A program made the translations under genes and the position numbers. Below the pieces are notes generated by a model. The model searched no databases. It had not been told where the DNA came from and worked only from the letters and a program-made list of their open reading frames with translations. Below, piece by piece: positions 19,910-20,884 of a stretch of 64,000 nucleotides of DNA (within the stretch, counting starts at the first letter, position 1; each line of letters starts with the position of its first letter). This DNA is from Somniosus microcephalus (Eukaryota): NCBI GenBank assembly GCA_052327205.1, contig CM126202.1:77810001-77874000 (forward strand). The letters are read 5' to 3'.

Positions 19910-19931
19910 TTCAAAATTTAGCCAATAAAAT

Positions 19932-20884
19932 TGATATACCTATCAATTCAGTTCATGAAAAGCGACGAGTGAAGTTAGTAACTACAGGTAGACTATCCTT
20001 TATCCGAAAACCTCGGGACCAGCCGAGTTTTGGATAAAGGAGAATTTCGGATTTCGGAAGGTGGGTCGGCGGGGGGTCGTGCGCACGACTTACGCTGACG
20101 CTCAGCGTAAGTCAGTCGGGGTCGGCGGGGGTCGGGGCCGGCGGGGTCCGCCGGGGGGGTCGGCGGTTGTCGGGGCTGGCGGGGTCGGCGGTTGTCGGGG
20201 CCGGCGGGGTCCGCGGTTGTCGGGGCTGGCGGGGTCGGCGGTTGTCGGGGCTGGCGGGGTCGGCGGCTGGCGGGGTCGGCGGTTGTCGGGGCCCGCGGGG
20301 GGGTCGGCGGCTGGCGGGGTCGGCGGTTGTCGGGGCTGGCGGGGGGGTCGGCGGTTGTCGGGGCTGGCGGGGGGGTCGGCGGTTGTCGGGGCTGGCGGGG
20401 TCCGCGGCGGTTGTCGGGGCCCGCGGGGGGGTCGGCGGGGGGTCGTGCGCACGACTTACCCTTTATCCGAACTTCCGCAACCGGAACCCTCTAAAAACCG
20501 AAGGTTTTTTCGTTCAGCTTAAGTCGTACGCACGACTTACGCTGAACGAAAAAACCTTCGGTTTTTAGAGGGTTTCGGTTTTCGGAAGTCCGGATAAAGG
20601 GTAGTCTACCTGTATAGGTTTTTATTGGCTAAATAACAGAGCCCACCCTCGTGGGTGATCGGATCCAACAAGGAGGAATACCAGCCAGTCGACCACCTTT
20701 ATACCTGGGCAAGCAGGCGGAGCCATGGGCGGAGTCAGCTGTGGTCAGCCCAGGTATAACAGCATGGCAAGAGGTGAACTTGTGTAGTGATACAACAGTG
20801 TAAACAGTGATAACCATAGTGTAACGATATAAACAGTGATAACCATAGTGTAACGATAGTGAACGATAAAAGTGGTTTACCACA
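19932..20884 (-). repeat. Gypsy 5' LTR, interrupted by a MITE at 19985-20612
   Basis: Matches the 3' LTR apart from ~3 substitutions, a 29-bp duplication in U3 and the insertion. Confidence 0.95.
19985..20612. mobile_element. pogo/Tigger-like MITE with GC-rich minisatellite and long hairpin
   Basis: 22-bp TIRs CAGGTAGACTA(T/C)CCTTTATCCG with a TA duplication. The empty site (aacTAtagg) is visible in the other LTR. Confidence 0.92.

Follow-up and report, generated by a model that had tools for sequence, protein, structure and literature searches.

Self-priming of reverse transcription has so far been shown for Tf1, and predicted for Tf1 relatives and a few plant groups. According to the portions of the Tf1 literature drawn on here, the first 11 bases pair and RNase H cuts between bases 11 and 12 (PMC7175516), a structure of three duplexes is needed, and a chromodomain is present (PMC10085805). 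The Mag lineage is characterised, in the section of the source cited, by two adjacent CCHC knuckles, often a single gag-pol frame, and no chromodomain (PMC5408684). For retroviruses, the parts cited report that the plus strand copies an unmodified primer as far as the primer 5′ end, and that in HIV-1 a tRNA modification halts the plus strand, without which synthesis reaches that end (PMC13191261).

Here we describe a Gypsy element in a 64-kb window (the whole stretch of DNA analysed). It represents a separate clade, very abundant in this genome, which appears to reach self-priming another way, tied to the choice of poly(A) site. A literature search, with Repbase and GyDB outside its scope, found no paper on poly(A)-signal self-priming in animal non-chromovirus Gypsy elements, and none on integrated copies of a primer.

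The element in the window

The element lies on the minus strand, from its 5′ LTR at 20884-19932 to its 3′ LTR at 15893-15600, and has the TG...CA LTRs, target duplication and protease, RT, RNase H, integrase order of Ty3/gypsy elements. The target duplication reads TGGAC at 20885-20889 and TGGAT at 15599-15595, and the insertion site is a LINE-type RT reading frame, which we take to be CR1-like. The gag gene (18938-19909, minus strand) begins with an ATG 22 nt past the spacer base described below and encodes 323 aa to the stop in the window copy, including two CCHC knuckles. This stop falls within repeats of ~55 nt, three to four of which lie between gag and protease (18824-19024); 16 of 29 other copies keep the frame open from the gag start over more than 543 codons. 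The pol gene (15936-18740, minus strand) differs in frame from gag in the window copy, and in it a Pfam scan recognised protease, RT, RNase H and integrase, arranged as in Gypsy elements, and gave no hit to a chromodomain. Between pol and the 3′ LTR is a polypurine tract (PPT; 15894-15907, minus strand). The 3′ LTR, at 294 bp, differs from the 5′ LTR by 3 substitutions in 294 aligned bases and is one 29-bp unit shorter. Elsewhere in the window, ~39-nt units with A/T runs form a tandem array (28937-29368).

The 5′ LTR measures 953 bp, where uninterrupted copies usually have 323-324 bp, and contains a TA-flanked miniature inverted-repeat DNA transposon of 628 bp (20612-19985) directly past the 15-nt segment considered in the next section. 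The transposon has a TA duplication, CAGGTAG ends and a GC-rich minisatellite; it belongs to an unrelated, independent high-copy family and entered the LTR after the element had integrated. The family is young, with about 1,000 candidate members, many 99-100% identical. They include an internal hairpin of 49 nt and vary in the length of the minisatellite, and six further copies sit at unrelated TA sites. The Rfam matches in the element proved to be chance matches to the hairpin of the inserted transposon.

A primer site complementary to the LTR

The 5′ LTR is followed by a single spacer A (19931, minus strand) and then by TTTTATTGGCTAAAT (19930-19916, minus strand). This site is the exact reverse complement of 20634-20620 in the 5′ LTR and of 15672-15658 in the 3′ LTR (both minus strand), the latter carrying the poly(A) signal that would be used, and the 15-mer has no other occurrence in the window. 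The TATA box of the 5′ LTR (20698-20703, minus strand) has GC-box-like motifs upstream; in LTR coordinates, the T of TATAAA stands at position 182 and the paired segment starts at 251, 69 nt away. The original prediction was of a 15-nt perfect complement to both LTR copies, overlapping AATAAA ~65 nt below the TATA box, in place of a TGG tRNA site. It is borne out on each count, with the paired LTR segment ending in AATAAAA and TGG absent from the window element and from all 15 representatives of its clade. Chance complementarity was ruled out, the longest complement being 10 nt in 20,000 shuffles of a 324-nt LTR.

In the 29 other copies examined, the LTR is always uninterrupted and the primer site identical; its partner is perfect in 26 and carries a single change in 3. 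The exact pattern of LTR end plus site occurs 3,264 times in the genome. Site variants were found in six copies of the window element's family (family A) among 30 loci, the rest of which belong mostly to family F; in each, the change affects the site and not its partner, which is what mutation after insertion would produce. A tRNA screen limited to two isotypes (Cys and Lys genes) gave a longest complement to the site of 5-6 nt, and Rfam found no tRNA-like match in the element. The tRNA-Cys genes form a large tandem array with a spacing of about 1.6 kb (G000:C24:42.9-43.2 Mb; L172, L174-L200).

Covariation in related families

Searches with diverged Gag proteins and one pattern identified five further families (B-F) in the same genome, with RT 61-89% identical to that of the window element. 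A metagenome scan returned 80 loci, and the 59 that reach the gag start were examined, namely 48 within the clade and 11 Mag-like outgroups. Perfect pairing of at least 11 nt, one base past the LTR end, was found at 27 of the 48; the other 21 had short pairing (10), a displaced pairing, the site being present with no partner at the usual distance (3), or no pairing (8), these last being truncated, decayed or unexplained. Two in-clade elements, L222 and L274, are without a clear LTR-complementary site and may be exceptions or decayed copies. The in-clade loci represent about seven families with many near-duplicates, and by database labels the relatives come from rays, catsharks, a sea anemone and porcelain crabs; scans of viral contigs gave no match.

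When 15 representatives were compared in a matrix, the pairing of each site covered 11-18 nt with the LTR of the same element and 3-11 nt with those of other families, except that sister variants with shared sequence pair over 13-14 nt. Covariation of the two 15-mers among relatives had been proposed as a check on the pairing, and compensatory changes are indeed present across 13 families. Among the six families of this genome they fall at four positions upstream of AATAAA, and in other families they reach the hexamer itself (ATTAAA/TTTAAT, TTAAAA/TTTTAA). The pairing ends in AAA in every representative, followed by A/G-C-C in 14 of 15; comparison across families places the corresponding ACC of the window copy, just after the putative cut, at 20617-20619 (minus strand). 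The spacer base is A in 14 representatives and G in one.

A quick RT tree was built without named references from 54 of 78 RT rows, near-duplicates and partial rows having been dropped. A long branch (SH-aLRT 100) separates all 12 self-pairing rows from the TGG rows, and the clade stands apart from every other sequence included. A TGG tRNA site was seen in 5 of the 11 outgroup loci. At L165:600-1450 (G000:C3 near 289.2 Mb), an inverted unit of family F is fused to the beginning of a Mag-like element that has an ordinary TGG tRNA site; the junction may reflect a template switch between two Gypsy lineages or later repair.

Integrated copies that probably record the primer

The plus strand rebuilds the primer site by copying the primer, and copies that have gone too far should therefore show the primer. 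In family A, 185 copies have a non-T base after the 15-mer, compared with 3,264 normal ones. Of the 185 we examined 90, made up of the initial 30 and of 60 from the 70 that followed, leaving out 3 presumed tandem duplicates and 4 copies with C or G, with 85 further copies lying beyond this sample; three fetched later have tails of 27, 53 and 265 nt. In 88 of the 90, the site is followed for at least 18 nt by the LTR in inverted orientation (its reverse complement), while two have no tail, and foreign sequence follows the site in none. After the tail, 50 copies switch in sense orientation to the internal region, in many cases at 2-8 nt of microhomology. Others return to the U5 end (about 12-13), stop at the U3 terminus (6), continue into the PPT side (4) or jump antisense (2), and 13 go to flank or are unresolved. 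These read-through copies, probable fossils of the primer within the genome, are newly described here.

Of the 15 copies in which both ends could be inspected, 14 are flanked by 5-bp target duplications, so the aberrant copies formed before integration, which rules out rearrangement after insertion as the source of the tails. The tail shares a minor allele of its own LTR in 16 of 20 cases. Mismatches between tail and own LTR at polymorphic sites (3/90) are not above background (15/1,083), and alleles therefore do not separate copying of a primer from fold-back of DNA. Self-priming is supported by the covariation across 13 families together with read-through copies that carry their own LTR sequence.

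Some integrated units are only 349-375 bp long and combine a single LTR with an inverted tail and a U5 end that has been regenerated (L290, L292, L295, L296, L311, L319, L322, L323, L342, L353, L360). Most have a 5-bp target duplication and would be misread as solo LTRs produced by recombination; they may form small hairpin RNAs. Internally deleted copies with shared junctions (L298, L299, L329 and L367; L346 and L350) represent hot spots or re-mobilised non-autonomous lineages. Three loci on different contigs (L002, L003 and L012) have the same 8-nt flank, which suggests segmental duplication or redundant assembly.

Where the tails end

Among the 90 tails, one is 15 nt long, 45 are 16-45 nt and 26 are 46-56 nt (22 of these 50-56 nt). 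None ends at 57-67 nt, and 18 are longer (6 at 68-98, 2 at 152-200 and 10 at 241 nt or more). Tails of 50-56 nt end at LTR positions 210-216, equivalent to TATA+34 to +28, an edge that would correspond to the expected transcription start. The stop rate per nt is 0.022 before the edge, 0.070 at 46-56 nt and 0.009 at 57-100 nt; the second differs from the first with a p value of 1e-5 (2e-4 on 79 distinct junctions) and from the third with a p value of 1e-7 (1e-5 on the same junctions). The 46-56 bin was chosen after the first 30 copies. The later 60, fetched after the idea had been recorded and counted by hand, gave 20 tails at 46-56 nt, none at 57-67 and 13 beyond. Microhomology bias was rejected as the source of the edge, the supply of microhomology being no higher at 46-56. 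LTR positions 212-215 form the 3′ arm of a weak hairpin (-2.5 kcal/mol as DNA), which might be a polymerase pause site; a stronger one (-5.0 kcal/mol) at 230-243 within R was passed by 59 of the 90 tails. The partner had been predicted to lie inside R, over the poly(A) hexamer, and appears to do so; the tails reach 35-40 nt past the paired part, as far as TATA+28 to +34, an indirect sign of this.

The 18 family-A tails that pass the edge include 6 that reach the U3 end and 4 that enter the PPT side. The edge was not reproduced in 47 copies of family E, the second large family, which is without a clear TATA box: 18 of these tails extend as far as the U3 end, the others being scattered, with 2 of the 47 entering the PPT side. 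Families C and D together gave 10 read-through copies, one of which (from family D) ends at TATA+31, and family B gave a single one among 12 matches, with a long tail into the PPT side; the numbers in families B and C/D are too few to test the edge. Family F contributed two read-through tails among 30 loci, each reaching the U3 end. Long tails to U3 or PPT in families A, E and F therefore indicate that fold-back of plus-strand DNA on itself also occurs.

Folding of the leader and the poly(A) signal

In the folded leader, nt ~40-54 pair with the site at probabilities of 0.6-1.0 (z -4.5 for the region). The arms of the pairing are 689 nt apart in the window copy because of the inserted miniature transposon, compared with 59 nt in uninterrupted copies, and the 15-nt pairing is predicted to persist despite it. 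In the same kind of fold, the probability that the hexamer is unpaired is 0.0-0.2 in the 5′ leader versus about 0.8 in the 3′ LTR, so the duplex could also prevent early polyadenylation; it is predicted to conceal the 5′ poly(A) signal, with the 3′ one left free. The original prediction had assigned two roles to one hairpin, and of these the priming of RT gains from covariation and read-through copies, while the masking of 5′ polyadenylation is predicted in folds only. Several families have a predicted stem that begins at RCC. Loop folds fall at or below 16/300 shuffles in only 4 of 13 families, and a conserved U5 stem like that of Tf1 was not clearly supported across families. Contigs of four runs, placed on an uninterrupted copy, carried no start or end information.

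A model of priming and its alternatives

That the element supplies its own primer, by whatever route, is in our view almost certain. The primer itself is probably the capped first ~50-54 bases of the element RNA, freed by a cut after AAUAAAA, and the read-through tails look like plus-strand copies of such a capped molecule. The RNA would start near TATA+30 to +34 and its nt ~40-54 would pair with the site past the 5′ LTR, the last 15 bases of the primer being those complementary to the site. In the window copy, the edge of the tails points to a primer at 20673-20620 (minus strand), from a predicted start at about 20673-20669 to the last paired A of AATAAAA. A cut at AAA^RCC, directly after AAUAAAA, would free the 3′ end, and the nuclease is likely to be the element's RNase H, by analogy with Tf1. 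Minus-strand DNA would be extended through U5 up to the cut, and would then transfer to the ~15-30 nt that separate the 3′ AAUAAA from the poly(A) tail. The plus strand would copy the primer and rebuild the site, so that site and LTR would stay matched. Usually, copying would halt after the paired part, or the excess would be removed; in about 5% of copies it would have continued along the primer up to the 5′ end, with the product then rejoined elsewhere.

A primer made up of the paired 12-16 nt only, cut on both sides or started there, seems unlikely. The tails would then arise from plus strands re-annealing to the uncut 5′ end of a co-packaged RNA, which would yield the same edge, or from fold-back of DNA combined with a pause. 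So short a primer would explain the 95% of copies that have no tail, fold-back products to the U3 end are real (6/90 in family A and most of 18/47 in family E), a weak hairpin does lie at the edge, and some families have initiator-like words near the start of the pairing. However, the TATA box stands 84-95 nt upstream of the primer 3′ end in families A, B, C and D, which argues against a transcription start at the 15-mer, a second cut has left no sign in the data, and about 12-13 of the 90 tails return to the U5 end, next to the point at which the primer is attached.

It is very unlikely that priming occurs in trans, by short capped transcripts that end at the poly(A) site of a 5′ or solo LTR and are trimmed to the duplex, with the genomic RNA left uncut. 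Such transcripts would give the same start-site edge and would account for the constant position of the primer 3′ end within the poly(A) hexamer, but tails match the minor alleles of their own LTR in 16 of 20 cases and not those of a random family member. In addition, the RCC conserved downstream of the duplex would be apt for a cut, and the 5′ hexamer is predicted to be paired.

Pairing by the RNA 3′ end had been offered as the other way to prime at this site; in the form of a genomic RNA whose 3′ end is trimmed to AAUAAAA, it strikes us as highly improbable. Reading of U3 through into the PPT side, as this would entail, occurs in 4/90 copies of family A, 2/47 of family E and one of family B, so that it fits only those 4 of the 90 aberrant copies, most of which stop at or before the predicted 5′ end. 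No start-site edge would be expected, whereas 72/90 tails stop at 56 nt or less and none at 57-67, and long tails are also expected from annealing of the plus-strand end to the 3′ R. That the duplex only masks the 5′ poly(A) signal while a host RNA (a tRNA fragment or other) primes is scarcely credible, for although the pairing always covers the hexamer and the host tRNA set was barely sampled (two isotypes), a separate host RNA matching the LTR exactly would be needed for every family, foreign sequence is found in 0/90 read-through copies, and the element has neither a TGG start nor a tRNA-like Rfam match.

Returning to the capped primer of ~50-54 bases, we lean towards the broader view that self-priming arose independently in a Gypsy clade that spans animals and is not related to Tf1/sushi. 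Its features would be a long capped primer, a conserved AAA^RCC cut after the hexamer, a single duplex that both primes and silences the 5′ poly(A) site, and integrated copies that record the primer. The aberrant copies take the claim beyond complementarity, to a physical record of the primer, and yield exact predictions for the start site, the cut site and the primer length. If this is true, read-through copies map the start site, and the primer of any high-copy retroelement could be read from the genome alone. The aberrant copies also raise the question of how the plus strand normally stops after 15 nt without the tRNA modification used by retroviruses.

Comparison with known elements

In common with Tf1, Tf2, Tj1 and the Tf1/sushi group of chromoviruses, as presented in the parts of the sources cited, the present element has no tRNA site, a sequence after the LTR that complements its own LTR, and a primer that would be cut from the RNA 5′ end and copied into the plus-strand end (PMC7175516, PMC10085805, PMC4600332, PMC11042837). 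In Tf1, however, the first 11 bases are the whole primer, whereas here the pairing begins about 35-40 nt past the putative start and, in the present clade, ends in the poly(A) hexamer. The present element also gives no chromodomain hit and has no clearly conserved three-duplex 'pretzel', and the RT of its clade is separate and long-branched, by eye unlike that of sushi and Maggy. Despite the similar mode of working, we did not file the element under Tf1/sushi because it lacks two defining features, the paired segment apparently not being the extreme RNA 5′ end and the Pfam scan showing no chromodomain.

With the Mag lineage (Mag, SURL, Jule, Gulliver), the element shares two adjacent CCHC knuckles, a gag-pol frame that is often single, and the lack of a chromodomain, as given in the section cited (PMC5408684). 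It also shares by eye the one-residue spacing after the DY/DF motif of RT with Mag, Jule, Gulliver and Fugitive, in the part of the alignment source drawn on (PMC2871265). In contrast, its RT shares only 24-33% identity with the Mag-like loci found, and several of those loci carry TGG tRNA sites of the kind missing from all 15 representatives. The RTs of Mag, SURL, Jule and Gulliver, compared by eye only against the same source, are otherwise unmatched (PMC2871265). Placement in Mag was rejected; the Gag looks Mag-like, and the RT is apart from the Mag-like loci found.

In plants, self-priming has likewise been predicted from LTR-to-site complementarity for Tcn1 (gypsy) and for TAR, Houba and Osr-1 (copia), and has arisen more than once (PMC6317226). 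In the portion of that account cited, the prediction comes from complementarity alone, with neither a link to the poly(A) signal nor read-through copies (PMC6317226). The read-through of an unmodified tRNA primer in retroviruses, as described in the part cited, is similar in that the plus strand copies past the paired part if it is not stopped (PMC13191261), but in the present clade the sequence copied is the element's own R, and the products are seen as integrated genomic copies.
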